DNA from: a virus | Lineage: Duplodnaviria; Heunggongvirae; Uroviricota; Caudoviricetes | Length of the DNA: 64,000 nt | Virus record (IMG/VR): IMGVR_UViG_2703718787_000017 | Direction: 5' to 3' (one strand) | Shown: piece after piece, positions 21,229 through 60,727 of the stretch | Numbering within the stretch: position 1 is the first letter of the stretch | Layout of the letters: every line of letters starts with the position of its first letter | Made by a program: the position numbers and the translations under genes | Notes under the pieces: generated by a model | Database searches by the model: none | Seen by the model: the letters and a program-made list of their open reading frames with translations, nothing else | Told to the model about the DNA's origin: nothing

Positions 21229-21251
21229 CCTAAACTATCACTATAGGGAAG
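21229..21251 (+). promoter_or_regulatory. second T7-group RNAP promoter-like 23-mer CCTAAACTATCACTATAGGGAAG (predicted +1 at G 21246)
   Basis: Shares ATCACTATAGGG with site 1; same -8 to +3 core as T7 consensus. Confidence 0.5.
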
Positions 21252-21781: not shown

Positions 21782-22873
21782 ATGAACATCCATAAATTCA
21801 TCGACATGAACGAAGTCATCGCCAGCAATCATCCTCTTGCCAAAGGTACCACTGACAGCGTAACGCAGGTCATCGTGTCACACCTGAAGTCCGGCGATGC
21901 AGGTATCGACATCCTGAATGCGCCTAAGGCCGCTAGCGATATGTCTGCCAGCTTCCTGAATGACTTGAAGAGCAAGTATCGTGTCGTGGCTGGTCATAAC
22001 TCTGAGGGTCACATTGATGCATGGCTGGCGCATAAGCACAGCGGACGCCGGGTGACGACTAAAAGCAATGACAAGGGTTATCGCGCTGTGAGCGTGAATG
22101 GTCGCCCGTATCAGGAGCACCGCCTTATCGTGGCCCTGTTCTATGATGTGGCACTGCCGGGCTGGGTGGTAGTTAATCACGCTGTGTCCTGCACCATTTG
22201 GAACGAAGGCAAATCAAACCATCCGTTCAACCTCCGATTAACGACATCATATGGTAACCAGCTTGATAAGAAGGTCCGCGAAGGTGTTCGCAATAAGTTC
22301 ACCGGGTACTACTTCGATGAATATCGTGGCAAGTGGCGCGTCCAGATGAAGCGGCCTTTCGCTGGTGGTCCGCAGCATTTCGGCATGTACGACACCGAAG
22401 CTGAGGCCTACATTGTCCGCTGCGCTGTCCTCCACCAGCATCTTGGTGCGTTCTGGGCGATGACCACCGGGGAATCCGGTCTCGTGCCCCGAGTCAAACC
22501 TGACGGTTCTCTGGTACTGCCTACTGAGCATGGTTACGATTGGGCGGAAAACCTGCCTTATCCTGAGGACTGGGACGACGAGTTCAAGGCCCGGCTGGAG
22601 GAGATGAAGCTGTACTGGGACGCATATCATGTGTTCGGTATTGAAGACGAAGAATACTTCGGCGACTGTGTGTCAGGGCTTGATGTGAACGCAGTAGTGT
22701 TCAACGGCGTGCCTGCCATTATCGACATCACAGAAGGACTTCCGGTGTCATATGCTCACTGGTTCGGACCAAGCCAACGCTTCGAGTTCACCAACTACTA
22801 CCAGCGCTGCATTCACGCCTGTGACCTTGATGCGGAACCTGAAGAGGAAGACTGGATGGAGAACGATTTCTGA
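21782..22873 (+). CDS. HNH endonuclease with AP2-type DNA-binding domain (homing-endonuclease-like)
   Basis: YQEHRLIVALFYD…VVNH motif (HNH) followed by RLTTSYGN…YYFDEYRGKWRVQM…FGMYDTEAEA (AP2-like); RBS AAAGGAG. Confidence 0.75.
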   Translation: MNIHKFIDMNEVIASNHPLAKGTTDSVTQVIVSHLKSGDAGIDILNAPKAASDMSASFLNDLKSKYRVVAGHNSEGHIDAWLAHKHSGRRVTTKSNDKGYRAVSVNGRPYQEHRLIVALFYDVALPGWVVVNHAVSCTIWNEGKSNHPFNLRLTTSYGNQLDKKVREGVRNKFTGYYFDEYRGKWRVQMKRPFAGGPQHFGMYDTEAEAYIVRCAVLHQHLGAFWAMTTGESGLVPRVKPDGSLVLPTEHGYDWAENLPYPEDWDDEFKARLEEMKLYWDAYHVFGIEDEEYFGDCVSGLDVNAVVFNGVPAIIDITEGLPVSYAHWFGPSQRFEFTNYYQRCIHACDLDAEPEEEDWMENDF

Positions 22874-23085
22874 TGACAATTAAACAGCATATCGACCCTC
22901 GCACCGATATCGGCAGGGCAACACTTCGTTATCGTGGTCTGCCTACTCGTCATCTTCTGTCAATGCTGGGGATGGGTACTGATTCATCCGAGCGCCCTTA
23001 CTACAATCGAGACGAGCTGATAGCAATGCTGGTGGACCGTGATTTGAATAATCAGTTGCGTCGAGCCTTTGCTAAGCAGTCCTGA
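22873..23085 (+). CDS. hypothetical protein (70 aa)
   Basis: ATG overlaps stop of upstream gene (TGATG coupling). Confidence 0.5.
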   Translation: MTIKQHIDPRTDIGRATLRYRGLPTRHLLSMLGMGTDSSERPYYNRDELIAMLVDRDLNNQLRRAFAKQS

Positions 23086-23208
23086 CCATACCACCTTAAT
23101 TTAAACACCTTTTGAGAATGACCGATGCGGGGAGACCGTAGGCATAACTGTGTCTGCGATACCGATAGTTCTCACCTTCTCAAGAGGAGTAATTACTATG
23201 TCTAGCAA

Positions 23209-23707
23209 AGCTAGTGCGTTATTCAACAACAACGACTGGAAACTGTCTGTCACCGACATCAATCTCTATGAAAATACTGTGAATCTGGATGGGCAGTCCT
23301 ACCCGTTGTCTCTGGCTATCAAGACCCTCATTCCGGGCTACCTGTCAGGCTTACCGTCCACCAGCAGCGCGGCGATGGAGCTGTTAGAGGCTCTGGCTGA
23401 AGCTGGTGTAGCTATTGGCAACTTCTTCAGTAATGACCTGATGACCGCCTATGGTCGCCGCCAGCAGAACAAGCGAGCTGAGGCTGAGCGTATCGCTAAA
23501 GAGCAGCGCATTCAGGCCGAGCGCATGCGTGAAGAGAACATGACTGATGCAGAGTGGCAGAAAGAGCTACAGCGCCGCGAACAGGTCAAAGCTGAACGCC
23601 GGACCTATGGTGAGAACCTCCGCAGTGCTACCCATTCCGCTGGTCGCTCCCGTGCCGCTATTGTCGCTGACATTGAGTCAGGCGGTAACTGGATGGACAG
23701 CCTCTAA
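23209..23707 (+). CDS. hypothetical protein (166 aa) with charged coiled-coil C-terminal half
   Basis: RBS AGAGGAG 9 nt upstream of ATG; no family recognised; scaffold-like composition is speculation. Confidence 0.6.
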
Positions 23708-23781
23708 GACAGACACACAAGTGGTCCTGACCTGATGTCGGGACCCACAGTATCTAAAACTAATTTAGGAGATTGATTATT

Positions 23782-24771
23782 ATGACCATGATTAAAGATA
23801 GCTATCAGTTCGGCATTGAGCCAGTACGTATCACCGACACCGACAACATTCAGGTAAACGAAGGTCTTCCGACTAACGCCGACCCTCAGGTCTATGCCTT
23901 CCAGTTAGCTAAGCTGGTGAAGACCATGCTCAATTCTGTACTTAAAGACGCTCAGGATAACATTCCGTTCCCTGTAGAAGTCCTGCCAGCTCGCAACAGC
24001 TTACCGACGCCAATCATTGCTCACACTCTGGCTGACCGCTCTGTGGTCGTTCCTGTCCGTGGTGGTAAACGACCTGAAGTCGTGACCGCTCCGTCTGGTA
24101 CTGAAATCACCGTTGAGCCGATTGAGCAAGCTATCCTCGTGTCCCACCAAACCAAGCTATGGGACGCTAAGTCATCCACCGGATTCACTCAGGGCACACT
24201 TCAGCAGGACGCTATGAACATCTGTGAGAATGTGGTCCGTACCATCAACGCTCGCATGGTCGACGTTCTGGAGTCCTCCAAACTGTTGAAGACCGTAGAG
24301 CTTCCTGTCCTGACTGGTAGCCTGACCGCTAAGGCAGACGATATCATGGACGCTCTGTATGACAACACCGAGTCCTCTTTCGGCTCTGAAGTGTCTGATT
24401 ATGGCATCATCGCCCATGAGTCCCAACTGAAAGCGCTGTCCCGTCTGGCTGCTAAACAGGGCTTCTCTGGTGAAGACGCTATCGTGGATATGCTGGGAAC
24501 AGACATCGCCTACTACAACGGTGAAGACAAGGGTGTGTTCATGCTGGCTAAACGCTTCACGGCCCTGAGCTTCGGTTGCTTCCGTCATGATGGCGAGAAC
24601 ATTACCGTGGTCTTATCCCGGGATGGTGACTCTCAGTCTAACTCTCTGGAAATCCTCGGCAAGGTCTTCGTGGTTGCTGAAGCTGCTACGACAATCAAGA
24701 TGGGTACTGGTAGTGCTACTGCTGTCCTGCCTGTAGTCAAACGCCTGAAGTTCACCAAGACCGAAGCGTAA
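23782..24771 (+). CDS. hypothetical protein (329 aa); structural (capsid-like) role possible but unverified
   Basis: RBS TTAGGAG upstream; largest non-enzymatic ORF of the island. Confidence 0.65.
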   Translation: MTMIKDSYQFGIEPVRITDTDNIQVNEGLPTNADPQVYAFQLAKLVKTMLNSVLKDAQDNIPFPVEVLPARNSLPTPIIAHTLADRSVVVPVRGGKRPEVVTAPSGTEITVEPIEQAILVSHQTKLWDAKSSTGFTQGTLQQDAMNICENVVRTINARMVDVLESSKLLKTVELPVLTGSLTAKADDIMDALYDNTESSFGSEVSDYGIIAHESQLKALSRLAAKQGFSGEDAIVDMLGTDIAYYNGEDKGVFMLAKRFTALSFGCFRHDGENITVVLSRDGDSQSNSLEILGKVFVVAEAATTIKMGTGSATAVLPVVKRLKFTKTEA

Positions 24772-24934
24772 GACCATGAGCAGAGGTAAGTCTGGACTGA
24801 ATATCAGCAGGACTTCAGGTGGTGGATTATCAATGTAATTAATAACTATGGTCTGGACTTCGGTCTGGACCTTATTAGCGAAGTTATCCACAGCTTAATA
24901 ACATATACAACTTTATTCACATTAAGGAGGACGC

Positions 24935-25018
24935 ATGGACCTGCATAAAGTCTATCTTATCGTCTTCCTGTTGAAGCTGGTGCTGGTGGTCGTGCTTACA
25001 GTCAGGGTACGGCTGTGA
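24935..25018 (+). CDS. small hydrophobic peptide (27 aa, MDLHKVYLIVFLLKLVLVVVLTVRVRL)
   Basis: Strong RBS TAAGGAGG 5 nt upstream; single predicted TM helix; too short to be in the ORF track. Confidence 0.3.
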   Translation: MDLHKVYLIVFLLKLVLVVVLTVRVRL

Positions 25019-25128
25019 GCTGGCGAGCAGCTAACGATGAGTTTTGGACCAAAAGTTAGAGACCTGATTCAATACAATTAAGACACCAATGTTCCCCGGT
25101 GCCACCCTGAGTCCAGACCGAGGCCACC

Positions 25129-25140
25129 GGGGGGGGGGGG
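25129..25140. repeat. homopolymeric G12 tract
   Basis: Twelve consecutive G read directly, near the island right end. Confidence 0.9.
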
Positions 25141-25170
25141 CTGACCAGCCGTCTAGACATCCCGTCTAAT

Positions 25171-25204
25171 GACACAAGGCTGACACAAAGCCTGACACAA
25201 AGTC
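25171..25204. repeat. three direct copies of TGACACAA(G/A) (putative integrase arm-type sites, right end)
   Basis: ATGACACAAGGCTGACACAAAGCCTGACACAAAG; mirrors the two copies at 18829-18850. Confidence 0.5.
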
Positions 25205-25257
25205 CTTGACTCAATGCAGGACCTCAGGCCTACTAAGGGTCCGCTTCAAGTCCTTGA

Positions 25258-25272
25258 AGTTCCAGATGAACT
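25258..25272 (+). repeat. right copy of 15-bp direct repeat AGTTCCAGATGAACT
   Basis: Exact match to 18661-18675. Confidence 0.8.
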
Positions 25273-26668
25273 TAATGGGCACATCCAGTTTATCTTTGCC
25301 GCGGACGCCGTCGCGGATTGCCGTCATTTGCGGACCATGATCGATAGCATCTGTCCAGCTGAAGCAGGAGATTGACATTTTGACCGGATTATCCAGCACC
25401 GGCAGGCGTTCTATGGTAATGGTATAGGTCGATTCACGCGCGCCACTATTTCCGCCGCTGATGCCGACATTGCCCGTCAAAATAGGTAACATAGCAATAG
25501 CGCGTGCAGTCAGTTCGCCGTTTGCCTGGCGTTGCGGCCCCCAGCCCTGGCAGATATAAGCGGGTTTTGCTGTGCCAATTTCACGCGCCAGTTTGATGAT
25601 ACGGTCTACCGGGATACCGGTAATTTGCGAAGCCCACTGCGGCGTTTTCGCTGTGTTATCATCACCTTCACCAAGAATATAGGCTTTATAGTGACTATTT
25701 TTGGGTGCATCTGCGGGTAAGGTTTTTTCGTCATAGCCGACGCAGTATTTATCGAGAAAAGGTTGATCAACGAGATTTTCGTTAATCAATACCCAGGCAA
25801 TACCCGCAACCAGCGCGGCATCGGTGCCCGGGCGAATAGGGAGCCATTCATCTTCACGACCAGCAGCCGTATCGGTATATCGCGGATCGATAGCAATCAT
25901 TTTGGCGTTCGATTTCTCGCGCGCTTTTTCAAGAAGATAAGTGATGCCACCGCCGCTCATGCGGGTTTCTGCCGGGTTGTTACCAAACATCACGACCAGC
26001 TTGCTGTTTTCAATATCCGTGGTGCTGTTGCCATCATTACTGCCGTAGGTGTAGGGCATGGCACAGGAAATTTGCGCGGTGCTGTAGGAGCCATACTGAT
26101 TGAGTGAACCGCCGTAGCAGTTCATCAGGCGTTTGACCGCCGAGGCTGATGGCGAAGAGCGGGTCATATTGCCGCCAACGATCCCCGAAGAGTACTGAAT
26201 ATATACAGCCTCATTGCCATATTGTTCGACGGTTTTCTTCAGGCTACTGGCGATAGTATCCAGGGCTTCATCCCAGCTAATCCGTTCGAATTTGCCTTCG
26301 CCGCGTTTGCCCACGCGTTTCATTGGGTAATTCAAGCGATCGGGATGATTAATACGCCGACGGATGGATCGACCACGCAAACAGGCGCGTACTTGATGAT
26401 TGCCATACTCGTCGCTGCCGGTGTTGTCAGTTTCCACCCAGGTGACTTCATTATCTTTAACATGTAGACGAAGTGCACAGCGGCTACCACAGTTGACGGA
26501 ACAGGCACCCCAGATCACTTTTTCGCTGGCCTGTTGTACCGCTGCCGCTGCACTGCGCAGGGTGAACGGTAAAGAAAAACCGCCTGCAGCCAGCGCCAGA
26601 GAACCTATCGCGGTTGATTTAACGAGTGTTCTGCGGCTGATGCCCACCATTCGGTCATTTTTGGACAT
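25273..26668 (-). pseudogene. ynfE: ynfE 5' portion (N-terminal about 465 codons incl. Tat signal), interrupted by the island
   Basis: MSKNDRMVGISRRTLVK… Tat motif and CSVNCGSRC; native frame ends at …PIKFIWN then reads into island sequence. Confidence 0.85.
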
Positions 26669-36783: not shown

Positions 36784-36836
36784 CGGCGGCAGAGCAGTCA
36801 CGGAGTAAAACTGATACCGCCAAACGTCACCAGAAA
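36784..36836 (-). ncRNA. dicF: DicF small RNA (ftsZ-targeting Hfq-dependent sRNA)
   Basis: Minus-strand sequence TTTCTGGTGACGTTTGGCGGTATCAGTTTTACTCCGTGACTGCTCTGCCGCC matches remembered DicF; 175 nt upstream of dicB as in K-12. Confidence 0.8.
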
Positions 36837-40224: not shown

Positions 40225-40647
40225 GTGGCAAAAGTTTTTACACAAGAAGAGCGGGAAAAAATTAAAGGGCAGGTGGTGGAACTCGTGCGCCAGAGCGGTC
40301 GTGAGACGTTACGGCAACTGGAAGCTAAAACAGGTGCGACTAGATATCTGATGAGCGTTCTTGCCAGAGAGCAGGTAGCCAGTGGCGATGTATACAACTC
40401 CGGCTACGGGTTATTCCCGTCTGAACAGGCGCGTAAGGACTGGCAAAACGCCCGCAAAAAACTCTCGAGGGCAAAGGTGAAGAAACCTGCTGTGGTTGAT
40501 CCGGACCTTATCTGGTCATTACCTGACGGAGAAATACGCCGCTACGACAGTCGTCTAAACATAATCTGTCGCGAGTGCCGGAAGAGCGAAGTTATGCAGC
40601 GTGTTCTGACGTTTTATCAGGGGAATTATCGGGAGGTGATGCTGTGA
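40225..40647 (+). CDS. hypothetical protein (140 aa, GTG start) downstream of the O-like gene
   Basis: RBS AAGGGGGA; occupies the position of a helicase loader but no similarity recognised. Confidence 0.55.
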   Translation: MAKVFTQEEREKIKGQVVELVRQSGRETLRQLEAKTGATRYLMSVLAREQVASGDVYNSGYGLFPSEQARKDWQNARKKLSRAKVKKPAVVDPDLIWSLPDGEIRRYDSRLNIICRECRKSEVMQRVLTFYQGNYREVML

Positions 40648-40877
40648 GTACATCGGCTACCATTCTCGACATGTGCTGTGGCAGTCGCATGCTCTGGTTC
40701 GATAAGAATGACGAATGGTCGATATTTAGCGATATCAGGAAAGAGGAACATTCGCTATGTGATGGACGTCACCCGATTATTAATCCCGACATTATCGCTG
40801 ATTTTCGTGCGCTGCCGTGGTTGTCTGCTTTGCATCAAAAGCAGACATTACCAGATTTAGACATCTGTTTCCGATAG
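40644..40877 (+). pseudogene. 78-codon ORF resembling the N-terminus of a class I methyltransferase (LDMCCGSRM…SIFSDIR…), apparently truncated
   Basis: GTG start with GGAGG RBS; motif-I-like sequence; frame ends early and overlaps the next gene region. Confidence 0.3.
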
Positions 40878-40930
40878 CCCGTTCTGATGCTACACTTTTT
40901 GCTATTTTCATGAACCTCATAAACACATTT

Positions 40931-41596
40931 ATGACTGTTGCTGATTTCAAACGCCCCAAATTGGAGCTCCCAAACGGGGCAAAAAAACTATTACTGCACT
41001 CTTGCTGTGCTCCATGTTCCGGTGAAGTGATGGAGGCGCTTCAGGCCTCGGGAATCGACTACACCATCTTTTTCTACAACCCGAACATTCATCCTCAGAA
41101 AGAGTATTTAATTCGTAAGGATGAGAATATTCGCTTTGCTAAACAACACGGCGTGCCATTTATTGATGCTGATTACGACACAGACAACTGGTTTGAGCGA
41201 GCCAAAGGAATGGAATGGGAGCCTGAACGAGGGATCCGTTGTACCATGTGTTTTGACATGCGTTTTGAGCGGACTGCACTGTATGCCGCTGAAAATGGTT
41301 TCAGTGTGATCAGTAGCTCACTGGGCATTTCACGCTGGAAAAATATGCAGCAGGTTAACGACTGTGGACGGCGAGCCGTCGCGCATTATCCGGGCATGGT
41401 GTACTGGGATTATAACTGGCGAAAACAGGGCGGCTCTTCCCGCATGATTGAAATCAGCAAGCGCGAACAATTCTATCAGCAGGAATATTGTGGCTGCGTG
41501 TATTCACTGCGCGATACCAATCTACACCGCAAATCTCAGGGACGCCCTCTAATCAAAATTGGTCAACTGCACTACGGTAAGGAAGGACAGGAATGA
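40931..41596 (+). CDS. DUF208/QueH-like protein (putative epoxyqueuosine reductase family), 221 aa
   Basis: N-terminal …[13 protein letters not shown]… signature plus later Cys residues recalled as the QueH hallmark; start codon uncertain (no clear SD). Confidence 0.55.
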
Positions 41597-42208
41597 TTTT
41601 ATATTATGCCAACGGAGCGTAGCAGTGTTTCTATATATAGTACGCCTACCTTAATTTTCAAATAATCATGATTAATGAGCAGGTCATCAGTGCAAGCAAT
41701 GACCTGCTCATCTTGTTGAAATTAGAGGAAATCTTGCAGCCATGATATGGCTTAAAATAACGTTTGATTATTTTACCTGCTGTTTGTCCCTGGTTTAAAG
41801 TCGGTTGTCTGATTTGATTACGCGCAACTGACGCTTACGTATTGAAGTAACGAGCACGAAGACACATATTTATCAGTGCCTGTATACGTCAAGAGCAGGA
41901 GATTTATGTGCTGGTTCTCAAATGCACGCTGGCTATTGTGGCTGTAATGGCAATTTATTGTCTTGTTATTGTTCTTATGGATCACCTTTCTGATTGATTT
42001 CATATTGGCGAGGTAACGGTAGTTAAGTAGAATGGCTGCGGGTGCTTGAGGCTATCTGCCTCGGGCATGAACACCAACGGCAGATAGAGAAAAGCCCCAG
42101 TTAACATTACGCGTCCTGCAAGACGCTTAACATTAATCTGAGGCCAATTTCATGCTAGACACATGTAGGTTAGCCTCTTACGTGCCGAAAGGCAAGGAGA
42201 AGCAGGCT

Positions 42209-42364
42209 ATGAAGCAGCAAAAGGCGATGTTAATCGCCCTGATCGTCATCTGTTTAACCGTCATAGTGACGGCACTGGTAACGAGGAAAGACCTCTGCGA
42301 GGTACGAATCCGAACCGGCCAGACGGAGGTCGCTGTCTTCACAGCTTACGAACCTGAGGAGTAA
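42209..42364 (+). CDS. hokD: Hok-family type I toxin HokD (RelF)
   Basis: 51 aa MKQQKAMLIALIVICLTVIVTALVTRKDLCEVRIRTGQTEVAVFTAYEPEE. Confidence 0.85.
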   Translation: MKQQKAMLIALIVICLTVIVTALVTRKDLCEVRIRTGQTEVAVFTAYEPEE

Positions 42365-45127: not shown

Positions 45128-45669
45128 GCTTTAAATGGGGCAATAGAGATATTGAATCTCATCCCGGGATAAACATTGGGAGTTGAAGGTCCACGCGAAC
45201 CATTTATCCGGCAAAATTCCACGCGTAATCCTGTGGTAATTTCTTCTGCATCTCGAAGATTGAGAGCTGAAACGTGAAGCTGGGCATCGATACGCCATCG
45301 GATGGGAATATAAGACCTTTGCTGCTTTTGTAGTCAAAGTTTTTGACAATTCCTGTCATTTTAGGGGACAGAAAAACTCCTTAATACTGATAACCTGGTG
45401 CACCATACACACGTTCCTGGAGAAAACTACTTTGTTGATAGGGTTGAAGGTGTCTGGATGTCTAAAATAAACATTGCTTCATATGTTCAACTATGAGTTA
45501 ATGACTGCGTCGGTTTGAAGAACAGACGATATACGAAGTAGTTTACTAAAGCAGTTCTCATTTCAGGTGTTATTCACTTATTCCTTCTTTGAGTCTCTCC
45601 AATTAAGTACGAAGTCGTTTCTGTTATGCAAACCATTTATGCCGAAAGGCTCAAGTTAAGGAATGTAGA

Positions 45670-45885
45670 ATGTCAAATAAAATGACTGGTTTAGTAAAAT
45701 GGTTTAACGCTGATAAAGGTTTCGGCTTTATTTCTCCTGTTGATGGTAGTAAAGATGTGTTTGTGCATTTTTCTGCGATTCAGAATGATAATTATCGAAC
45801 CTTATTTGAAGGTCAAAAGGTTACCTTCTCTATAGAGAGTGGTGCTAAAGGTCCTGCAGCAGTAAATGTCATCATTACTGATTAA
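45670..45885 (+). CDS. cspB: cold-shock protein CspB-like
   Basis: [38 protein letters not shown]… CSD with RNP motifs; long AT-rich 5' leader. Confidence 0.9.
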
Positions 45886-46166
45886 AATTCATCGCTCGTC
45901 TGTATACGATAACGAAGAAGGCTGATGCCTGAGTAGAGATACGGACAGAGTAGTGAATATTGGATTTCTTTAATAAAAATTAAGGAGGTCCAATACATGA
46001 AACAATGGCCAGCATATTTGGCAAAATCTTAATCAGGAAAAGTATGCTAACCATTGTGGTGAAGTGCAGGTTTGCTGCATGAATAGTTTTACAGCAGAAG
46101 CTAACTGCTGGCATGGCAAAACAAAGTGCGTAAGTGGATGACTCCCACAAAAAGCACCACAATCTC

Positions 46167-48193: not shown

Positions 48194-48554
48194 GGTAATA
48201 TTAAATCGGAACATTTACATCGCGGAATGTAAAATTTAAATAAAAAGGACTCTTCCATGAGCCAAAATTCCTGAAATCTTAAGGGTAAGATAAAAGGTCT
48301 TAATCAGAATGACACGTTTTATTAATAAATAAAGCTATTCTTTCATTGCTGTGTTTTTCTTTACAAAAGTAATCCTTGCTATGGGTGGTTAATCATGCGT
48401 TAATGGTGTTCTGGTTTGTTACAAATTTATCTGAAGCAGTCATTGTTATAATTTTATTATTTGTACCTCTTGAGATTTCCTTGTTGGTTTTTCTCTCTGA
48501 TATTTTTTTCGGACCATTCTGCCCAAGGGCTAATTTCTTCAAAAGGTAATAATT

Positions 48555-48767
48555 ATGTCTAACAAAATGACTGGTTTAGTGAAATGGTTTAACCCTGAAA
48601 AAGGTTTTGGTTTCATCACGCCGAAAGATGGCAGCAAAGATGTGTTTGTCCATTTCTCAGCAATTCAGAGCAACGATTTCAAAACATTAACTGAGAATCA
48701 GGAAGTTGAATTTGGTATTGAGAACGGACCTAAAGGTCCTGCCGCTGTTCATGTAGTGGCGCTTTGA
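48555..48767 (+). CDS. cspI: cold-shock protein CspI-like
   Basis: [38 protein letters not shown]…. Confidence 0.9.
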
Positions 48768-49038
48768 GGTAGACAATATTACAAACCATATTCACTTTAG
48801 ATGCCCGTGTTGTCATGGTTCCCAGTATAGAACATCATCTTTTGATGTTTCTGACATGAATCCTTTCGGGGCAAAATGTATCTTTTGTAAATCAATGATG
48901 ATTACATTTGATAATATTTCACAATACTTAAATGCCAGCCGTCTGTCGTTGGATTTAAAAAAGTGAAAATGAAGGCTCCTTCGGGAGCTTTTTTGCTTGG
49001 TGTCTATTCGATGGATACTCACATACTACGGTAACATC

Positions 49039-51731: not shown

Positions 51732-53833
51732 TGCTGAATCAGGAAACCGCAAAGGCAGCACGAACCGATTCAGGTTATATCCTTCGCGCACCGAGACGAA
51801 TGCGGGTTGCTGATGCCGTTGCTCAGTATATGCGGGTGCCCATGGGGGCAGGGAACTCAGTCCCGTGGGATCCGCTGGTGGCACCGTATGTTATTGAGCC
51901 TATGAACTGCCTGGCCTCGCGTGAATACGACGCAGTGATATTTGTTGGCCCGGCACGAACCGGCAAGACTATCGGCCTGATTGACGGCTGGGTGATTTAC
52001 AACGTGATTTGCGATCCTGCTGATATGCTGATCATTCAGATGACGGAGGAAAAAGCCCGCGAACACTCCAAAAAACGACTCGCCAGAACGTTTCGCGTCA
52101 GCCCGGAAGTGGTCAGTCGCCTGAGTCCGAACAAAAATGACAACAACGTTTATGACAGAACATTCCTTGCTGGCAACTACCTGAAAATCGGCTGGCCGTC
52201 AGTCAATATCATGTCTTCATCAGATTATAAATGCGTGGCGCTGACGGATTATGACCGTTTTCCGGAAGATATTGATGGTGAGGGGGATGCCTTCTCTCTT
52301 GCCTCAAAACGTACCACCACATTTATGTCCAGTGGTATGACGCTGGTGGAGAGTTCCCCCGGCAGGGATGTGAAGGATGTGAAATGGCGACGGACTTCAC
52401 CGCATGAGGCTCCACCAACCACGGGGATCCTGTCGCTCTATAACCGTGGCGATCGCCGTCGCTGGTACTGGCCCTGTCCACACTGTGGTGAGTATTTTCA
52501 GCCCTGCGGCGATGTGGTTGCTGGTTTCCGTGATATTGCCGATCCTGTGCTGGCAAGTGAGGCGGCTTATATTCAGTGTCCTTCCTGTTCAGGACGGATT
52601 TTGCCTGAACAAAAACGCGAGCTGAACGGACGTGGGGTCTGGTTACGGGATGGTGAATCCATCAATGCAGATGGCAGTCGTTATGGTGATCCCCGGCGTT
52701 CACGTATTGCGTCATTCTGGATGGAGGGGCCGGCAGCTGCTTATCAGACACTCTCGCAACTCGTTTACAAACTGCTTACTGCAGAACAGGAATACGAGAC
52801 AACCGGAAGTGAAGAGACACTCAAGACGGTTATCAATACCGACTGGGGATTACCTTATCTTCCCCGCGCCAGCATGGAGCAACGAAAAAGTGAATTGCTT
52901 GAGCAGCGGGCAGAGCCAGTTCCTTCCCGCAGTGTGCCGGATGGCGTTAATTTCCTTGTGGCGACAGTGGATGTGCAGGCGGGACGTCATCGCCGTTTTG
53001 TGGTTCAGGTAACGGGCTATGGCAGCCGTGGCGAACGCTGGATTATTGATCGTTACAACATCACGCAGTCATTGCGCGGTGACAGCGACGGGGAGAGCCA
53101 GCGAATTGATCCGGCCAGCTATCCGGAAGACTGGGATGTCCTGCTGACGGATGTTTTTCATAAAAGCTGGCCGCTGGCCTCCGATCCTTCTCAACAAATG
53201 CGACTGATGGCAATGGCGGTGGACTCCGGCGGTGAAGACGGGGTCACTGATAATGCCTATAAATTCTGGCGTCGTTGCCGTCGTGATGGCCTTGGTAAAC
53301 GTATTTACCTGTTTAAGGGCGACAGCATCCGGCGCGCAAAACTGATCACCCGTACATTCCCTGATAACACCGGACGAACGGGCCGACGGGCGCAGGCCGC
53401 AGGTGATGTACCGCTCTGGCTTCTTCAGACGGATGCCCTGAAAGACCGGGTGAATAACGCGTTATGGCGTGACTCGCCAGGTCCCGGCTATGTGCATTTC
53501 CCTGACTGGCTGGGGAGCTGGTTTTACGACGAACTGACGTATGAAGAGCGGAGCAGTGACGGGAAATGGAGTAAGCCGGGTCGCGGTGCCAACGAAGCTT
53601 TTGACCTGATGGTGTATGCCGAGGCTCTGGTCATTCTGCATGGATACGAAAAGATCCGCTGGCCGGATGCACCGGAGTGGGCGAGCCGGGAAACCTGGCT
53701 GGAGTGTGTCCCGGACAGTACCGAACCGTCACCCACACCGGAACCGGTATCCACGCCTGTTAAAAAACAAAAACGGAAGAAAACAGTAACTGACGATGTT
53801 AACCCCTGGCTGACTTCCGGAGGATGGTTATGA
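51731..53833 (+). CDS. terminase large subunit (lambda gpA-like), 700 aa
   Basis: Size, position after Nu1-like gene, Walker-A-like VIFVGPARTGKT. Confidence 0.9.
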   Translation: MLNQETAKAARTDSGYILRAPRRMRVADAVAQYMRVPMGAGNSVPWDPLVAPYVIEPMNCLASREYDAVIFVGPARTGKTIGLIDGWVIYNVICDPADMLIIQMTEEKAREHSKKRLARTFRVSPEVVSRLSPNKNDNNVYDRTFLAGNYLKIGWPSVNIMSSSDYKCVALTDYDRFPEDIDGEGDAFSLASKRTTTFMSSGMTLVESSPGRDVKDVKWRRTSPHEAPPTTGILSLYNRGDRRRWYWPCPHCGEYFQPCGDVVAGFRDIADPVLASEAAYIQCPSCSGRILPEQKRELNGRGVWLRDGESINADGSRYGDPRRSRIASFWMEGPAAAYQTLSQLVYKLLTAEQEYETTGSEETLKTVINTDWGLPYLPRASMEQRKSELLEQRAEPVPSRSVPDGVNFLVATVDVQAGRHRRFVVQVTGYGSRGERWIIDRYNITQSLRGDSDGESQRIDPASYPEDWDVLLTDVFHKSWPLASDPSQQMRLMAMAVDSGGEDGVTDNAYKFWRRCRRDGLGKRIYLFKGDSIRRAKLITRTFPDNTGRTGRRAQAAGDVPLWLLQTDALKDRVNNALWRDSPGPGYVHFPDWLGSWFYDELTYEERSSDGKWSKPGRGANEAFDLMVYAEALVILHGYEKIRWPDAPEWASRETWLECVPDSTEPSPTPEPVSTPVKKQKRKKTVTDDVNPWLTSGGWL

Positions 53834-54042
53834 ATCAGAATGATATTGAAGCCATGATTCAGCGTTATACGGAAGCTGAAATGGCAGTGCTGGACGGAAA
53901 ATCCGTCACTTTTAATGGTCAGCAGATGACCATGGAAAACTTATCTGAGATCCGGCAGGGGCGGCAGGAGTGGGAGCGCCGCCTTGCGGCTCTGATTACA
54001 CGACGACGGGGGCATCCCGGGTACCGGCTGGCGAGGTTCTGA
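53824..54042 (+). CDS. head-tail joining protein (gpW-like)
   Basis: 72 aa between terminase and portal; TGATG overlap with portal start. Confidence 0.6.
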   Translation: MVMNQNDIEAMIQRYTEAEMAVLDGKSVTFNGQQMTMENLSEIRQGRQEWERRLAALITRRRGHPGYRLARF

Positions 54043-55550
54043 TGGCAATTCTTGATGATGTGATTGGCGTTTTTTCACCAGGATGGAAAGCGGCAAGGCT
54101 GCGTTCCCGAGCGGTGATCCAAGCTTATGAGGCCGTAAAAACGACGCGGACACACAAAGCCCGACGGGAGAACCGAACTGCCGACCAGTTAAGCCAGTAC
54201 GGGGCCGTGTCGTTACGTGAGCAGGCCCGTTACCTTGATAACAACCACGATCTGGTCATTGGTGTATTTGACAAGCTGGAAGAACGGGTGGTGGGGAAAA
54301 ACGGGATTATTGTCGAGCCACATCCGGTATTACGCAATGGTGCCATTGCCCGTGACCTGGCAGCGGAGATACGTACCCGATGGAGTGAATGGTCTGTCAG
54401 TCCGGAAGTCACCGGGCAGTTTACCCGTCCGATGCTGGAACGTCTGATGCTGCGTACCTGGCTGCGCGATGGTGAGGTGTTTGCCCAGATGGTTTCCGGG
54501 CGCATAAACAGCCTGACGCCTTCTGCCGGTGTTCATTTCTGGCTGGAGGCGCTCGAGCCGGACTTTATTCCCATGACCAGTGATGAGAGCAACAGGCTGA
54601 ATCAGGGCGTGTTTGTTGATGACTGGGGGCGTCCCGAAAAATATCTGGTGTATAAAAGTCGTCCTGTATCCGGACGGCAGATGGAAACCAAAGAAGTGGA
54701 TGCAGAGCGAATGCTGCATCTTAAATTTGTTCGCCGTCTGCACCAGATGCGCGGGACGTCTTTATTGTCCGGTGTGCTGATCCGCCTCAGCGCCCTGAAA
54801 GAGTATGAAGATTCTGAGCTGACTGCAGCAAGGATCGCCGCTGCTCTGGGGATGTACATCCGGAAAGGCGACGGACAGAGCTATGAAACGGATGGTAATG
54901 ACAGCAAGGAGAATGAACGCGAGCTTACCATTCAGCCAGGCATTATTTACGACGATCTGAAACCCGGCGAAGAAATCGGAATGGTGAAGTCGGATCGTCC
55001 CAATCCTAACCTTGAAACTTTTCGTAATGGTCAGTTGCGTGCCGTGGCGGCGGGCAGTCGTCTGAGTTTTTCCAGTACGGCACGCAACTATAACGGCACT
55101 TACAGCGCCCAGCGTCAGGAACTGGTTGAGTCTACTGATGGCTACCTGATCCTGCAGGACTGGTTTATTGGTGCCGTCACCCGCCCGATGTATCGTGCCT
55201 GGCTGAAACAGGCTGTGGCATCCGGTGTTATCAGGCTACCCCGCGATCTTGACCGTTCTTCACTGTATACCGCGGTGTATTCCGGACCAGTGATGCCGTG
55301 GATTGACCCTGTTAAGGAGGCTGAGGCCTGGAAAATCCAGATTCGTGGTGGAGCGGCGACAGAATCAGACTGGGTACGTGCTGGTGGTCGTAATCCGGAT
55401 GATGTCAAACGTCGGCGCAAGGCCGAAATTGATGAAAACCGCAAGCTGGATCTGGTATTTGATACCGATCCGGCCAGTGATAAAGGAGGCAGCAGTGCCG
55501 CAACGAAACGACAGGAGCCGCAGCACACCGACGACCAGTCCGAAGAATAA
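54042..55550 (+). CDS. portal protein (lambda gpB-like)
   Basis: 502 aa; canonical position; acidic C-terminus. Confidence 0.9.
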   Translation: MAILDDVIGVFSPGWKAARLRSRAVIQAYEAVKTTRTHKARRENRTADQLSQYGAVSLREQARYLDNNHDLVIGVFDKLEERVVGKNGIIVEPHPVLRNGAIARDLAAEIRTRWSEWSVSPEVTGQFTRPMLERLMLRTWLRDGEVFAQMVSGRINSLTPSAGVHFWLEALEPDFIPMTSDESNRLNQGVFVDDWGRPEKYLVYKSRPVSGRQMETKEVDAERMLHLKFVRRLHQMRGTSLLSGVLIRLSALKEYEDSELTAARIAAALGMYIRKGDGQSYETDGNDSKENERELTIQPGIIYDDLKPGEEIGMVKSDRPNPNLETFRNGQLRAVAAGSRLSFSSTARNYNGTYSAQRQELVESTDGYLILQDWFIGAVTRPMYRAWLKQAVASGVIRLPRDLDRSSLYTAVYSGPVMPWIDPVKEAEAWKIQIRGGAATESDWVRAGGRNPDDVKRRRKAEIDENRKLDLVFDTDPASDKGGSSAATKRQEPQHTDDQSEE

Positions 55551-55563
55551 TTCCTGGTTCAGG

Positions 55564-57522
55564 ATGCAGGCTGGTCACCAGAGTGACGCGGATATTTATA
55601 TTTATGACGAGATTGGTTTCTGGGGTGTTACAGCGAAGCAGTTTATCAGTGATCTGAATGCACTGGGCGATATCACCCACATTAATCTCCATATTAATTC
55701 ACCGGGTGGCGATGTCTTTGAAGGCATCGCCATTTTTAATGCGCTGAAAACACATGGTGCGTCCATTACCGTTTATGTCGACGGTGTGGCGGCGTCAATG
55801 GCGTCGGTCATTGCGATGGTGGGAAACCCGGTCATTATGCCGGAAAACACTTTCATGATGATTCATAAACCATTTGGCTTTACGGGCGGTGATGCGGAGG
55901 ACATGCGCACCTATGCCGACCTGCTCGATAAAGTTGAGGCGGTTCTGTTACCCGCTTATGCACAGAAAACCGGGAAAACCACCGATGAAATTGCTGCCAT
56001 GCTGGCGGATGAGACCTGGATGTCCGGTGCCGAATGTCTGGCACATGGATTTGCTGATCAGGTAACGCCAGCCGTTAAGGCAATGGCATGTATTCAGTCA
56101 AAACGTACAGAGGAATTTAAAAAGATGCCGGAATCCATTCGAAACATGATTACTCCGCCACGCAACAGTGCTCCACGCGTACAGGATGATGAACCTGCAG
56201 CCTCCCGGACGCCAGTGCAGGCAGCAGCACCCGTGGTGGATGAAAACAGTATCCGTGCGCAGGTACTGGCAGAGCAAAAAGCGCGTGTAAACGGTATTAA
56301 TGATCTGTTTGCCATGTTTGGCGGGCGTTATCAGACTCTGCAGGCTCAGTGTCTTGCCGATCCTGAATGTTCGCTGGAGCAGGCCCGCGAAAAGCTGTTG
56401 AACGAGATGGGGCGCGAGTCCACGCCATCCAATAAAAATACCCCGGCTCATATTTATGCCGGTAACGGTAATTTTGTGGGGGACGGGATCCGCCAGGCGC
56501 TGATGGCGCGTGCCGGATTTGAAAAAACCGAACGTGATAATGTCTACAACGGGATGACCCTGCGTGAATATGCCCGTATGTCACTGACTGAACGGGGTAT
56601 TGGGGTTTCCAGTTATAACCCGATGCAGATGGTCGGTGCGGCGTTCACACACAGTACGTCTGACTTCGGTAATATTCTGCTGGATGTTGCGAACAAAGCC
56701 ATTCTGCAGGGCTGGGAAGATGCTCCTGAAACCTATGAACAGTGGACGCGGAAAGGTCAGTTGTCTGATTTTAAAATTGCCCATCGTGTGGGTATGGGGG
56801 GCTTCAGTGCTCTGCGTCAGGTGCGTGAAGGGGCGGAATATAAATACGTCACCACCGGAGATAAACAGGCCACTATTGCACTGGCGACCTATGGCGAGCT
56901 GTTCAGTATCACCCGTCAGGCCATTATCAATGATGATCTGAATATGCTGACCGATGTCCCGATGAAGCTGGGCCGTGCGGCGAAATCCACCATTGCCGAT
57001 CTGGTTTATGCCATTCTGACGTCTAACCCGAAAATCTCCACAGATAATGTAAGTCTGTTCGATAAAGCGAAACATGCAAACGTACTGGAGAGCGCTGCAA
57101 TGGACGTGGCATCGCTGGATAAAGCCCGCCAGTTGATGCGCGTTCAGAAAGAGGGGGAGCGTCATCTGAATATTCGTCCTGCGTTCGTACTGGTACCGAC
57201 GGCGATGGAGTCTGTTGCTAACCAGGTCATTCGCTCCTCAAGTGTCAAGGGGGCTGACATTAACGCAGGTATTATTAACCCGGTGAAAGATTTTGCGACC
57301 GTTATTGCAGAGCCTCGTCTTGATGATAACAGCCAGACCACCTTCTACCTGGCTGCGTCCAAAGGCTCCGATACGATTGAAGTGGCTTATCTCAACGGTG
57401 TGGATACGCCATATATTGATCAGATGGAGGGCTTCAGTGTGGATGGCGTGACAACGAAAGTGCGTATTGACGCCGGTGTCGCGCCAGTTGATCACCGCGG
57501 TCTGGTGAAATGTACGGCGTAA
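55564..57522 (+). CDS. prohead protease (ClpP/S49-like) fused to scaffold-like linker and major capsid protein
   Basis: N-terminal …DIYIYDEIGFWGV…INSPGGDVFEGIAIFNAL… ClpP-like serine protease motif; Pro/Ala-rich linker; long C-terminal capsid-like domain. Confidence 0.8.
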   Translation: MQAGHQSDADIYIYDEIGFWGVTAKQFISDLNALGDITHINLHINSPGGDVFEGIAIFNALKTHGASITVYVDGVAASMASVIAMVGNPVIMPENTFMMIHKPFGFTGGDAEDMRTYADLLDKVEAVLLPAYAQKTGKTTDEIAAMLADETWMSGAECLAHGFADQVTPAVKAMACIQSKRTEEFKKMPESIRNMITPPRNSAPRVQDDEPAASRTPVQAAAPVVDENSIRAQVLAEQKARVNGINDLFAMFGGRYQTLQAQCLADPECSLEQAREKLLNEMGRESTPSNKNTPAHIYAGNGNFVGDGIRQALMARAGFEKTERDNVYNGMTLREYARMSLTERGIGVSSYNPMQMVGAAFTHSTSDFGNILLDVANKAILQGWEDAPETYEQWTRKGQLSDFKIAHRVGMGGFSALRQVREGAEYKYVTTGDKQATIALATYGELFSITRQAIINDDLNMLTDVPMKLGRAAKSTIADLVYAILTSNPKISTDNVSLFDKAKHANVLESAAMDVASLDKARQLMRVQKEGERHLNIRPAFVLVPTAMESVANQVIRSSSVKGADINAGIINPVKDFATVIAEPRLDDNSQTTFYLAASKGSDTIEVAYLNGVDTPYIDQMEGFSVDGVTTKVRIDAGVAPVDHRGLVKCTA

Positions 57523-57608
57523 ACGTCGCAGACAACAACTCTGATGGCCCGTAAGGGCTTTTTTTGTACCTGAAATCAGCCTCTGAACGGGGCTGTACGG
57601 AGACAGTT

Positions 57609-57932
57609 ATGGCAAAGAATTTTGTAGAAGAAGGAAAAACGGTGGCGATTGTTGCCAGTGCAGCCATCAGCAGCGGAGATCTGGTGCAGGTGGGTGATGT
57701 TTTTGCGGTGGCGCTGACCGATATTCCACAGGGTGAAACAGGCGACGGCATGACCGAAGGTGTGTTTATCCTGCCTAAACTGAAAACGGATGACATGAAA
57801 ACGGGTAAGAAGGTTTATCTGAAGTCCGGAAAAGTTCAGCTGACTAACAGCGGCTCTGATCCGCTGGTCGGGGTTGTCTGGGCAGATGCCGGAACCAGTG
57901 CAGAAGAAGTGCCGGTAAAACTCAATGTCTGA
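57609..57932 (+). CDS. small head-associated protein (DUF2190-like, decoration/cement candidate)
   Basis: 108 aa; GGAG RBS; position after capsid gene. Confidence 0.6.
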   Translation: MAKNFVEEGKTVAIVASAAISSGDLVQVGDVFAVALTDIPQGETGDGMTEGVFILPKLKTDDMKTGKKVYLKSGKVQLTNSGSDPLVGVVWADAGTSAEEVPVKLNV

Positions 57933-58200
57933 TCCCTTTTCCCGGCTGGCAGCGCGTATGGATGCGATCACGGTCAGAAAGATGGGAAAGACAGCCTCGA
58001 TTAATGATGTCGATATGGCTGTGATCCCGGGCGAAACACTGGCAGAGCTGAATGCTCTGTCCGGACCTGCGGTCTCTCTGGTGGTGTTTTCTTCGGGATA
58101 CCGCCCACGGCGCGGGGATCGCGTTGTTTATGACGGACAACAATGGACGGTCACACGGCATGAACGTTTTAACGGTAAGCCAATGATCTTTATTGAGTAA
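57925..58200 (+). CDS. hypothetical head-tail connector protein (91 aa)
   Basis: Coupled to upstream gene (ATG overlaps stop region). Confidence 0.55.
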   Translation: MSDPFSRLAARMDAITVRKMGKTASINDVDMAVIPGETLAELNALSGPAVSLVVFSSGYRPRRGDRVVYDGQQWTVTRHERFNGKPMIFIE

Positions 58201-58211
58201 AGAGGTGTGGG

Positions 58212-58790
58212 ATGAAGGGGCTTGAGAATGCCATCCGCAATCTGAACAGCCTTGATACCCGTATGGTGCCACAGGCCAGCGCATGGGCGATAAACCGTGT
58301 GGCACAGAAAGCGGTCTCGGTTGCCACCCGGCAGGTTGCCGGGAATACCGTTGCGGGAGATAACCAGGTGAAAGGGATCCCCCTGAAACTGGTACGTCAG
58401 CGTGTCCGGGTGTTTAAAGCCAGTCCGTCAGGAAAAATGACGGCCAGGATCCGCGTTAACCGGGGCAATCTGCCCGCCATTAAGCTGGGGACAGCCCGGG
58501 TCAGACTGGCCCGGCGTGGTGGAAAACTGCAGTACCGTGGCAGTGTGCTGAAGGTGGGTAAATATCTTTTCCGGGATGCGTTTATTCAGCAACTGGCGAA
58601 TGGTCGCTGGCATGTGATGCGGCGTATTGATGGCAAAAATCGTTACCCCATTGATGTGGTGAAAATCCCGCTGTCCGGACCGCTGACACAGGCATTTGAA
58701 GATGCCCGCGACCACATCATTGCTGCGGAAATGCCGAAACAGCTGGGGTATGCACTGAAACAACAACTGAGGTTATGGCTGACCCGATGA
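58212..58790 (+). CDS. tail completion protein (gpZ-like by size and position)
   Basis: 192 aa, same length as lambda Z; order capsid-…-Z-U-V. Confidence 0.6.
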   Translation: MKGLENAIRNLNSLDTRMVPQASAWAINRVAQKAVSVATRQVAGNTVAGDNQVKGIPLKLVRQRVRVFKASPSGKMTARIRVNRGNLPAIKLGTARVRLARRGGKLQYRGSVLKVGKYLFRDAFIQQLANGRWHVMRRIDGKNRYPIDVVKIPLSGPLTQAFEDARDHIIAAEMPKQLGYALKQQLRLWLTR

Positions 58791-59188
58791 ACCGGCATAC
58801 ACAAATCCGCCAGGCCGTACTGGCACGCCTTCGGGAACAGTGTGGAGACAGCGCCACGTTTTTTGACGGGCTTCCGGCATTTATTGATGCGCAGGAACTG
58901 CCTGCCGTGGCGGTGTGGCTGAGTGATGCTCAGTACACCGGAAAAATGACGGATGAAGATGACTGGCAGGCTGTTCTGCATATTGCCGTCTTCATCCGGG
59001 CACAGGCACCGGATTCAGAGCTGGATATGTGGATGGAGAGCACCATTTTCCCTGCCCTGAATGATATACCGGCACTTTCCGGACTCATCGACACCCTGAT
59101 CCCACTCGGTTTTAACTATCAACGTGATAATGAGATGGCCACCTGGGCGATGGCGGAAATCACGTACCAGATCACGTACACGAATTAA
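58775..59188 (+). CDS. tail terminator (gpU-like by size and position)
   Basis: 137 aa immediately upstream of major tail gene. Confidence 0.6.
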   Translation: MADPMNRHTQIRQAVLARLREQCGDSATFFDGLPAFIDAQELPAVAVWLSDAQYTGKMTDEDDWQAVLHIAVFIRAQAPDSELDMWMESTIFPALNDIPALSGLIDTLIPLGFNYQRDNEMATWAMAEITYQITYTN

Positions 59189-59198
59189 GGAGGTGGTA

Positions 59199-59942
59199 AT
59201 GACCACACCAAATCCACTGGCAAAGACGAAAGGTGCGGGGACGACGTTCTGGATGTATACCGGCAACGGCGATGCGTTTGCGAACCCTTTGTCGGACACT
59301 GACTGGCTGCGTCTTGCGATGGTGAAGGATCTGCAACCTGGCGAAATGACCGCTGATGCAGAAGATGACACTTATCTCGATGATGAAGATGCAGACTGGA
59401 AAACGACAACCCAGGGGCAGAAATCCGTTGGTGATACTTCGGCGACGCTGGCCTGGCGTCCGGGTGACAGCGGGCAGAAAAAACTGGTTCAGTTGTTCGA
59501 CTCCGGTGAAGTCTGCGCGTTTCGTATCAAATATCCCAACGGCACTGTTGATGTTTTCCGTGGCTGGCTGAGCTCACTGGGTAAAACCATTGCCTCAAAA
59601 GACGTGATGACCCGCACTGTGAAAATCAGCGGTGTGGGGCGTCCGTATCTGGCAGAGGAAGGCACTGAAACCGTGAGCGTTACCGGGCTGACAGTATCAC
59701 CGGCGTCTGCCAGTGTAAAAGTGGGAGCAACCACCACGCTGACCTTTACAGTAAAACCTGACGGAGCCAGTGACAAAGCGATCAGTGTGCATTCGTCAGA
59801 TCCACAGACTGCCACGGTTACCCTGAACGGACTTGTGGCCACGGTAAAAGGCGTGAAGCAGGGCAGTGTCAGCATTGTGGGCATGACCGCTGACGGGAAT
59901 TTTGTGGCTGTGACTGCGGTGACTGTCAGCGCAGCAGGTTAA
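59199..59942 (+). CDS. major tail protein (gpV-like) with C-terminal Ig-like (Big_2-type) domain
   Basis: 247 aa; strong RBS AAGGAGG; C-terminal …VSVTGLTVSPASASVKVGATTTLTFTVKPDGASD…. Confidence 0.85.
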   Translation: MTTPNPLAKTKGAGTTFWMYTGNGDAFANPLSDTDWLRLAMVKDLQPGEMTADAEDDTYLDDEDADWKTTTQGQKSVGDTSATLAWRPGDSGQKKLVQLFDSGEVCAFRIKYPNGTVDVFRGWLSSLGKTIASKDVMTRTVKISGVGRPYLAEEGTETVSVTGLTVSPASASVKVGATTTLTFTVKPDGASDKAISVHSSDPQTATVTLNGLVATVKGVKQGSVSIVGMTADGNFVAVTAVTVSAAG

Positions 59943-59999
59943 CAGGACGATACTCATCATTTGCCCCGGTTATGCGGGGCTTTTTTGCAGGTGGAGAAC

Positions 60000-60389
60000 A
60001 TGATGTTTCTGAAACAGGACACGTTTAATTATGAAAAACAGTCCGTGGTGCTCAGTGAGCTGTCCGGGCTGCAGAGAATTGAATATCTGACGTTTGTTCA
60101 GCAGCGAACGGCAAAGTTTGATGCCGGGGAGGGAGAACTGCCGGAGGCTGAACGACAGATTGCTTTTCTGCGGATGGGGATGGATATCAATGCCTGGCTG
60201 GTTTCCCGCTCACTGTGGAATGCGGATCAGTCTAAGGATGTAGAGACGCTTTGCGCATCCGTTATTACAACATGGTCGTATGATGCCCTGGGTGCGGGGG
60301 CGGAGATGGTTCTGTCGCTGAGCGGTATGGGGGCCATTGATAATGCCGTGGATGATGAGCATGAGGCGCTGACGCCGGAAAAGTCCTGA
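60000..60389 (+). CDS. tail assembly chaperone (gpG-like)
   Basis: 129 aa upstream of tape measure; GGAG RBS. Confidence 0.75.
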   Translation: MMFLKQDTFNYEKQSVVLSELSGLQRIEYLTFVQQRTAKFDAGEGELPEAERQIAFLRMGMDINAWLVSRSLWNADQSKDVETLCASVITTWSYDALGAGAEMVLSLSGMGAIDNAVDDEHEALTPEKS

Positions 60390-60727
60390 CGCGGGAAATG
60401 CAGTTTGTCATGCGGCTTGCCCGGGAGTTCCGGCGGGCAGACTGGCGGCGGATGCTGTCGGAAATGTCGGCCACTGAGCTTGGTGAGTGGGGCGATTATT
60501 TCCGGATGCAGAGCTTCAGTGATGTGTGGATGGATGCGCAGTTTGCCTCGCTGAAGGCATTGATCGTGAGAATGGTGTCCGGCAGCAGTGATGCTGCGGT
60601 GGCTGATTTCAGCCTTTTACCGGAAGAGAACGGGATACCGGAGCGAACGGACGAAGAACTGATGCATCTTGGGGAAGGTATTTCCGGAGGTGTGCGTTAT
60701 GGACCAGATAGCCAACCTGGTCATTGA
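60365..60727 (+). CDS. gpT-like extension reached by putative -1 programmed frameshift from the G-like gene (G-T fusion)
   Basis: -1 frame opens at 60365 and overlaps the last 8 G codons; A-rich candidate slip site CGGAAAAG at 60376-60383. Confidence 0.45.
   Translation, partial: GADAGKVLTREMQFVMRLAREFRRADWRRMLSEMSATELGEWGDYFRMQSFSDVWMDAQFASLKALIVRMVSGSSDAAVADFSLLPEENGIPERTDEELMHLGEGISGGVRYGPDSQPGH

Follow-up and report, generated by a model that had tools for sequence, protein, structure and literature searches.

An intact queH gene carried as a compact module in lambdoid Escherichia coli prophages, with a predicted B12-independent role in queuosine synthesis

QueH is an epoxyqueuosine reductase (EC 1.17.99.6): at position 34 of tRNA-Asp, -Asn, -His and -Tyr it converts epoxyqueuosine (oQ) to queuosine (Q). 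Escherichia coli has QueG, an enzyme that needs B12, and E. coli cannot make B12. Acinetobacter baylyi is said, from work of Zallot in 2017, to have both QueG and QueH. In E. coli, QueG (b4166), which depends on a [4Fe-4S] cluster as well as on cobalamin, takes oQ34 to Q34 in tRNA (PMC5372724). E. coli has been shown to make oQ-tRNA (PMC5372724, PMC7026641) and to accumulate oQ in M9 medium because B12 is absent (PMC7026641); this accumulation without B12 is attributed to Frey 1988 where that work is cited in PMC6850298. QueH has been described as a cobalamin-independent replacement for QueG (PMC5615194), one that is iron-dependent and non-orthologous (PMC5615194, PMC9508795), and the two enzymes coexist and are expressed differently in S. 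aureus (PMC13443448).

The phage systems nearest to this pathway are the 7-deazaguanine clusters (DpdA, FolE, QueC, QueD, QueE) of phages such as 9g and CAjan, which belong to the same pathway family as queH (PMC6884629). Those clusters combine the preQ0 branch with a DNA transglycosylase, whereas the prophage described here has a tRNA-specific last-step enzyme alone. Among the viruses analysed by Hutinet et al. 2019, none had a homologue of QueA, QueG or QueH (PMC6884629). As for the position of the gene, the closest described arrangement is that of the Qin prophage of E. coli K-12, which occupies the same chromosomal site and reads dicA-dicC-ydfX-ydfW-flxA-ydfV-relB-relE-hokD-rem-ydfU-ydfT, with relBE and hokD as its moron cargo.

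Here we describe a queH gene in a 64,000-nucleotide stretch of viral DNA (the window), within a Qin-like lambdoid E. coli prophage integrated beside rspB. Judging from sequence comparisons, this gene probably encodes a functional, cobalamin-independent QueH that was captured and now circulates as prophage cargo, providing a B12-independent backup for the conversion of oQ to Q.

Family membership of the prophage protein

The gene is an intact open reading frame (ORF) of 221 codons that begins with ATG. Its coding sequence and the codons of its metal-site cysteines are located as follows.

40931–41596, + strand: queH coding sequence, 221 amino acids plus stop (ORF list, Pfam PF02677, PDB 7lc5, predicted fold, RefSeq CDS)
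41003–41017, + strand: CCAPC codons (C25-C26-A-P-C29), metal-site cysteines, from the 39-sequence alignment
41240–41251, + strand: codons of C104 and C107, metal-site cysteines
41489–41497, + strand: codons of C187 and C189, metal-site cysteines

The ORF has exactly the coordinates of the RefSeq coding sequence WP_001595803.1 of E. coli S19-651 (NZ_CP075852). RefSeq names this protein "epoxyqueuosine reductase QueH", and the QueH identity of the gene is in this sense already known. S19-651 differs from the window by 3 bases across 28500–54200 and by 3 mismatches across 53763–64000; the left 25 kb of the window differ from it and annotation there is not transferable. The reading frame can be extended upstream to a GTG at 40817. 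However, 5 of the 21 nucleotides preceding the ATG at 40931 vary between alleles, compared with a divergence of about 6% within the ORF, and this ATG is therefore the likely start. By the same measure of allele divergence the extension is unlikely to be coding, and the GTG was dropped as a start. No Shine-Dalgarno sequence precedes the ATG.

The initial annotation had recognized a QueH signature near the N-terminus, and profile search confirmed the family. More specifically, PF02677 (QueH, formerly DUF208) was matched over profile positions 1–174 of 175 with an E-value of 1.7e-65 and a score of 220.8 bits, for a curated cut-off of 23.5, and the protein was assigned to no other cysteine-rich family. 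Searching the PDB by sequence retrieved the Thermotoga maritima QueH structure 7lc5 (E-value 5e-22), and T. maritima QueH and its mutants were the only solved structures matched at an E-value of 0.001 or below. The predicted fold agrees: the five best PDB matches of the AlphaFold2 model (pLDDT 76.6, pTM 0.78) are all T. maritima QueH (target-normalized TM 0.78–0.85), among them a GMP complex and the queuosine complex (9deu), and the next folds, TtuA and argininosuccinate synthetase, follow at a TM of about 0.3. An NCBIfam search of the protein gave no match, which leaves the Pfam and PDB matches unaffected; the RefSeq name must therefore stem from another rule.

We aligned the prophage protein with T. 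maritima QueH and 37 representatives (39 sequences in total, 33–72% identity), the representatives being drawn from a search of 1.84 billion cluster representatives. Six cysteines, C25, C26, C104, C107, C187 and C189, are invariant across the alignment; they make up the CC...CxxC...CxC metal site and align with C9, C10, C87, C90, C169 and C171 of T. maritima QueH. All conserved metal-binding residues of QueH are accordingly present in the prophage protein, which shares domain, six cysteines and predicted fold with the T. maritima enzyme (PDB 7LC5, 7LC7, 9DEU). The two differ in the CCAPC motif of the prophage protein, at the last Cys of which T. maritima QueH has Asp. Since 38 of the 39 sequences have Cys at this position, C29, and T. 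maritima alone has Asp (Asp13), CCAPC is the family norm and T. maritima the exception. Li et al. 2021 reportedly found that QueH uses a [4Fe-4S] cluster with an adjacent iron and that Asp13 of the T. maritima enzyme is a ligand of this extra iron. Asp13 was also mutated by the structure depositors (D13N, PDB 9DCO). When compared with 25 close orthologues, the prophage protein deviates at two of the positions conserved at 85% or more, both times conservatively (V142 for I, H214 for Y). Family membership thus confirms the product of 40931–41596 as a genuine, intact QueH with predicted epoxyqueuosine reductase activity.

Position, edges and distribution of the queH module

The prophage begins with int, xis, exo, ydfD, dicB, the DicF RNA, the repressor gene and a cro-like gene, continues with a YdaT-like gene, an O-like gene and DUF977, and then has a truncated methyltransferase gene, queH, hokD/sok, rem, ydfU and the Q antiterminator gene (ydfT); csp genes, lysis and terminase genes and the head and tail genes follow. 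queH is thus preceded by the replication genes (O-like, DUF977) and followed by hokD-rem-ydfU-ydfT(Q). The initial annotation had placed it where K-12 Qin carries its ydfV and relBE cargo, and comparison of the gene orders shows this to be correct: the slot is the one that holds ydfV-relB-relE upstream of hokD in K-12. The features flanking queH are these.

40644–40829, + strand: methyltransferase pseudogene, N-terminal 62 amino acids, class I SAM-dependent (RefSeq pseudo CDS 'methyltransferase, missing C-terminus')
40861–40930, + strand: minimal upstream segment accompanying queH, the only stretch (about 70 bp) common to 13 upstream variants from 86 loci
42040–42364, + strand: hokD/sok type I toxin-antitoxin locus (Rfam sok RF01794, 115 bits; hokD CDS)

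In 66 of 80 IMG/VR loci compared with the window, homology begins at 40810–40860 on the left and ends at about 41600 on the right. The shared leader reaches back to about 40811 in most loci, and at least nine unrelated upstream contexts and three downstream contexts surround the gene. The methyltransferase gene carries an LDMCCGS motif; tblastn matched it at 66–72% identity to genes annotated as methyltransferases in Klebsiella, Erwinia and Escherichia phages. It is broken after 62 codons, at the left edge of the module. Downstream, a hok/sok-type region is found in 73 of the 83 loci compared. O157:H7 Z1814 (7851–9861) and eight IMG/VR loci have Dcm and NgoMIV, a DNA cytosine methyltransferase paired with an NgoMIV-family restriction endonuclease, after queH instead of hokD, suggesting that the slot adjoining queH is a hotspot for defence and addiction cargo. 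Together with about 70–120 bp of upstream DNA, the ORF behaves as a discrete cargo module with constant edges in variable backgrounds. In its compactness, conserved edges and mosaic contexts it is like the relBE/hokD cargo of K-12 Qin, which sits in the same slot. It differs from the usual morons, which are toxin-antitoxin, defence or virulence genes, in being a housekeeping-type tRNA modification enzyme, and from the typical definition of a moron in that its own promoter and terminator are putative.

The 389 bp between queH and hok/sok (41597–41985) are unannotated. Specific to this variant, the segment is missing from the common ST131/O157-type arrangement, and just 68 of 5426 complete E. 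coli genomes have it at a coverage of 80% or more. It contains a hairpin with a 12-bp stem (41676–41710), and a 61-codon ORF lies in the region, at 41818–42003 on the minus strand.

The gene content of the prophage also bears on the substrate of the enzyme. The initial annotation had raised a relation to 7-deazaguanine chemistry, and phages have recruited other Q-pathway enzymes for DNA modification (PMC6884629). A phage QueH acting on a substrate other than tRNA, such as a small molecule or an epoxide-carrying 7-deazaguanine within DNA, in the service of DNA modification or counter-defence could also be accommodated by a slot that hosts restriction-modification and toxin-antitoxin cargo. However, the annotated prophage genes from int to tfaQ/ydfK include no DpdA/Tgt-like protein, FolE, QueC, QueD or QueE, nor any other queuosine or 7-deazaguanine gene. 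In addition, the protein is 79–87% identical to chromosomal QueH, with just the two conservative deviations at conserved positions, and it had no match in a PADLOC search. We consider such a substrate highly improbable, and the link to 7-deazaguanine DNA chemistry was not borne out: with the defining genes absent from the annotation, prophage queH is not part of the phage 7-deazaguanine DNA-modification systems. A reading of the protein as part of a defence system was dropped on the PADLOC result.

We found queH in 995 of 5426 complete E. coli genomes (18%), with an identity of at least 99% in 63, 95–99% in 78 and 90–95% in 854, and with at least 80% of the gene covered in 985 of the 995 matches. 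All matches listed among the E. coli genomes are annotated as QueH. The gene is carried by E. coli B REL606 and E. coli C and by ST131, O104:H4 and O157:H7 genomes, among others; the Qin region of K-12 lacks it. In IMG/VR, 189 contigs have queH, and within the 80 loci retained the copies show an identity of 97% or more. Every context examined is the early-right region of a lambdoid prophage. By contrast with the E. coli genomes, any tblastn match at all was obtained for only 25 of 50,697 GenBank phage records, among which we judge Escherichia phage HannyBb (PP925841) to be the only credible isolate. The view that queH is unusual in a lambdoid prophage, taken in the initial annotation, thus holds for sequenced phage isolates and does not hold for the lambdoid prophages of E. 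coli. HannyBb, a relative of the present prophage that was deposited as a phage genome, annotates the queH ORF as 'hypothetical'. In PHROGs the family is phrog_3217, of 'unknown function', and its 188-position model begins at Met34 and so lacks the CCAPC motif. Phage-centred resources (PHROG 3217, the HannyBb annotation) therefore miss the QueH function. The literature searched for QueH or DUF208 with phage or prophage contained nothing on prophage queH, and this context of the gene appears to be undescribed there; the published absence of QueA, QueG and QueH from viruses calls for a small qualification.

Outside E. coli, the closest QueH proteins are those of Erwinia (86% identity), Providencia and Proteus (84–87%), Gibbsiella (83–84%) and Photorhabdus (79–80%). 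The three neighbourhoods examined are core chromosomal: an Erwinia-type contig has a purL-queH-glrK-type order, the Providencia gene is near tmcA and purC, and the Photorhabdus gene adjoins benE. Across Erwinia, Providencia, Proteus and Photorhabdus the chromosomal proteins are 79–87% identical to the prophage copy, which itself sits in a species with QueG on its chromosome. Between the window allele and the common ST131/O157 allele we counted 36 synonymous and 7 non-synonymous changes, a dN/dS of 0.04, and prophage queH is thus under purifying selection. queH therefore appears to be a housekeeping gene that was captured recently and has stayed functional.

Among the E. coli B strains, REL606 retains both the methyltransferase remnant and queH, and a deletion of about 1.4 kb took out both in BL21(DE3). 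The loss of queH was read from the annotation of BL21(DE3), whose locus (NC_012892.2, 1587941–1595043) was compared with that of REL606; the comparison concerns about 40590–41880 of the window. BL21(DE3), BLR(DE3), NEBExpress_Iq and a BL21 record have only the last 100 bp or so of the segment that follows queH, abutting a shortened DUF977. REL606 and BL21(DE3) thus form a natural queH+/queH- pair, and we know of no obvious harm to BL21(DE3) from the loss. This loss, the full redundancy with a universal queG, the position beside a methyltransferase remnant in a scarred stretch of DNA and the missing Shine-Dalgarno sequence would all suit a neutral or decaying passenger, functionless in E. coli and spread by recombination within the mosaic early region. 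Selection argues the other way, with a dN/dS of 0.04 between alleles that are 6% divergent in DNA. Furthermore, 985 of the 995 carrying genomes cover at least 80% of the gene, all catalytic residues are retained, and the same module edges are seen again and again across many backgrounds. We therefore regard a mere passenger as very unlikely.

Expression signals and proposed role

Candidate expression signals were found on both sides of the gene.

40888–40896, + strand: TGCTACACT, extended -10-like motif (TGn + TACACT), 34 nt before the ATG, invariant in 13 of 13 upstream variants
40900–40908, + strand: second motif, TGnTATTTT, upstream of queH
41676–41710, + strand: 12-bp GC-rich hairpin with a poor T-tract (TCTTGTTG), from the RNA fold of 41590–41740 (z -2.0), 80 nt past the queH stop

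The first motif, TGCTACACT, is also present 31 nt before the ATG of the chromosomal queH in the Erwinia-type contig; this match and its spacing were read from the raw sequences, and MAFFT misaligned that upstream region. The segment 40861–40930 is the likely location of a putative promoter belonging to queH itself, with TGCTACACT as a candidate promoter element. Because a strict consensus scan called no promoter upstream of queH, we infer this promoter from the conserved motif only. In one group of loci the module is directly preceded by a GC-rich hairpin, and there an internal promoter would be needed, or at least favoured. Past the gene, the hairpin at 41676–41710 may be a weak terminator; it has no proper T-tract and was not called by the terminator scan, which called none for queH and none between queH and the upstream early genes. 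With no promoter called and no Shine-Dalgarno sequence, expression of queH may be low. From these signals, expression in the lysogen from a promoter of its own is plausible.

Since no terminator was called between queH and the early genes, transcription from the phage early promoter alone is equally possible. queH would then be a lytic-cycle function, silent in the lysogen, transcribed with the early-right (pR) operon after induction and completing Q on host tRNAs for translation of phage genes. The gene is co-oriented with cro, the O-like gene and DUF977 without a predicted terminator between them, no strong consensus promoter was called upstream of it, and the free phage HannyBb retains it, all of which would be expected of such a function. 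On the other hand, the conserved 70-bp leader, whose invariant extended -10-like motif is found at chromosomal queH as well, argues against purely lytic expression, as does the GC-rich hairpin directly upstream of the module in some loci. The slot otherwise has cargo expressed in the lysogen (hok/sok, relBE in K-12, or a restriction-modification system), and turnover of tRNA modification within a short lytic cycle would seem to bring little benefit. Overall, we find an exclusively lytic role unlikely.

The role we favour, that of a backup enzyme able to complete Q synthesis without B12, is suggested by the presence of B12-dependent queG throughout the species. Whether the host has queG had been posed as a check in the initial annotation; we found it in all 5426 complete E. 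coli genomes, and queH is therefore always a second copy of the function. The reaction predicted for prophage QueH is that of QueG, in the same cells, but the two belong to unrelated protein families and QueG is the one that requires B12. Activity of the enzyme in E. coli is predicted from its 79–87% identity to chromosomal orthologues. We propose that queH was captured from an enterobacterial chromosome and that the module now circulates among lambdoid E. coli prophages as compact cargo (a 'moron'), lodged in a variable slot that has the replication genes on one side and hokD and the Q antiterminator gene on the other. As QueG needs B12 and E. coli cannot make it, prophage QueH would free the last step of Q synthesis from the B12 supply, and it would be redundant when B12 is available. 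The idea that the gene reprogrammes host tRNA modification, also put forward at the outset, is plausible in this restricted form, as conversion of oQ to Q made independent of B12, and not in any wider sense. We know of no functional difference between oQ and Q in decoding, and any fitness benefit of prophage queH is thus conjectural.

A more far-reaching version of the backup role would make prophage QueH a lysogenic-conversion factor acting on host tRNA modification, expressed from its own promoter, uncoupling Q from B12 in about one fifth of E. coli strains and measurably affecting translation or fitness when B12 is limiting. We put this forward tentatively, as possible but rather doubtful. 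B12-limited settings in which it might apply are gut competition, btuB-resistant mutants and minimal media. If true, prophage QueH would be the first documented phage-borne enzyme of the tRNA-specific queuosine branch. About 18% of complete E. coli genomes have, on a prophage, what is predicted to be a second and B12-independent queuosine route. Since REL606 and E. coli C carry queH, and K-12 and BL21(DE3) are without that copy, the choice of strain could silently shift oQ/Q ratios in tRNA studies done without B12.

Other features of the window

Rfam identified the DicF sRNA at 36784–36835 and cspA-type thermoregulator leaders at 45509–45932 and 48410–48794, the latter upstream of cspB/cspI according to the S19-651 annotation; both are as expected for a Qin-type prophage. 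In the S19-651 record, a tail gene that directly follows the tape-measure gene in the Qin-like prophage is interrupted by an IS3-family element (75730–76907); by transfer, this site corresponds to about 63990–64000 of the window. ydfA and ydfB are pseudogenes in the S19-651 prophage. Given the interrupted tail gene and these pseudogenes, this Qin-like copy may be defective.

To the left of the prophage, an island of about 6.58 kb (18676–25257) is inserted in ynfE with a 15-bp overlap at the junctions, splitting the gene into ORFs at 17645–18811 and 25211–26668 on the minus strand. The island has a 534-amino-acid ORF at 18737–20341 on the plus strand, and in related copies the annotation includes a site-specific integrase and a protein with an AP2 domain. 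It is missing from the otherwise near-identical strain S19-651, and a similar island was found in only 14 complete E. coli genomes, the best among the matches listed having about 92–95% identity. It may be a small integrative element or a phage satellite.

The first 14,700 or so nucleotides of the window are the right end of a second, unrelated prophage that adjoins a truncated ynfG. A giant 8.4-kb ORF with an LPD38 domain is located at about 1761–10142, as determined by comparison with S19-651, whose coordinates are shifted by 6597. Near antirepressor genes, Rfam sRNA-Xcc1 matches were found at 14135–14220 and 14671–14755, both on the minus strand.
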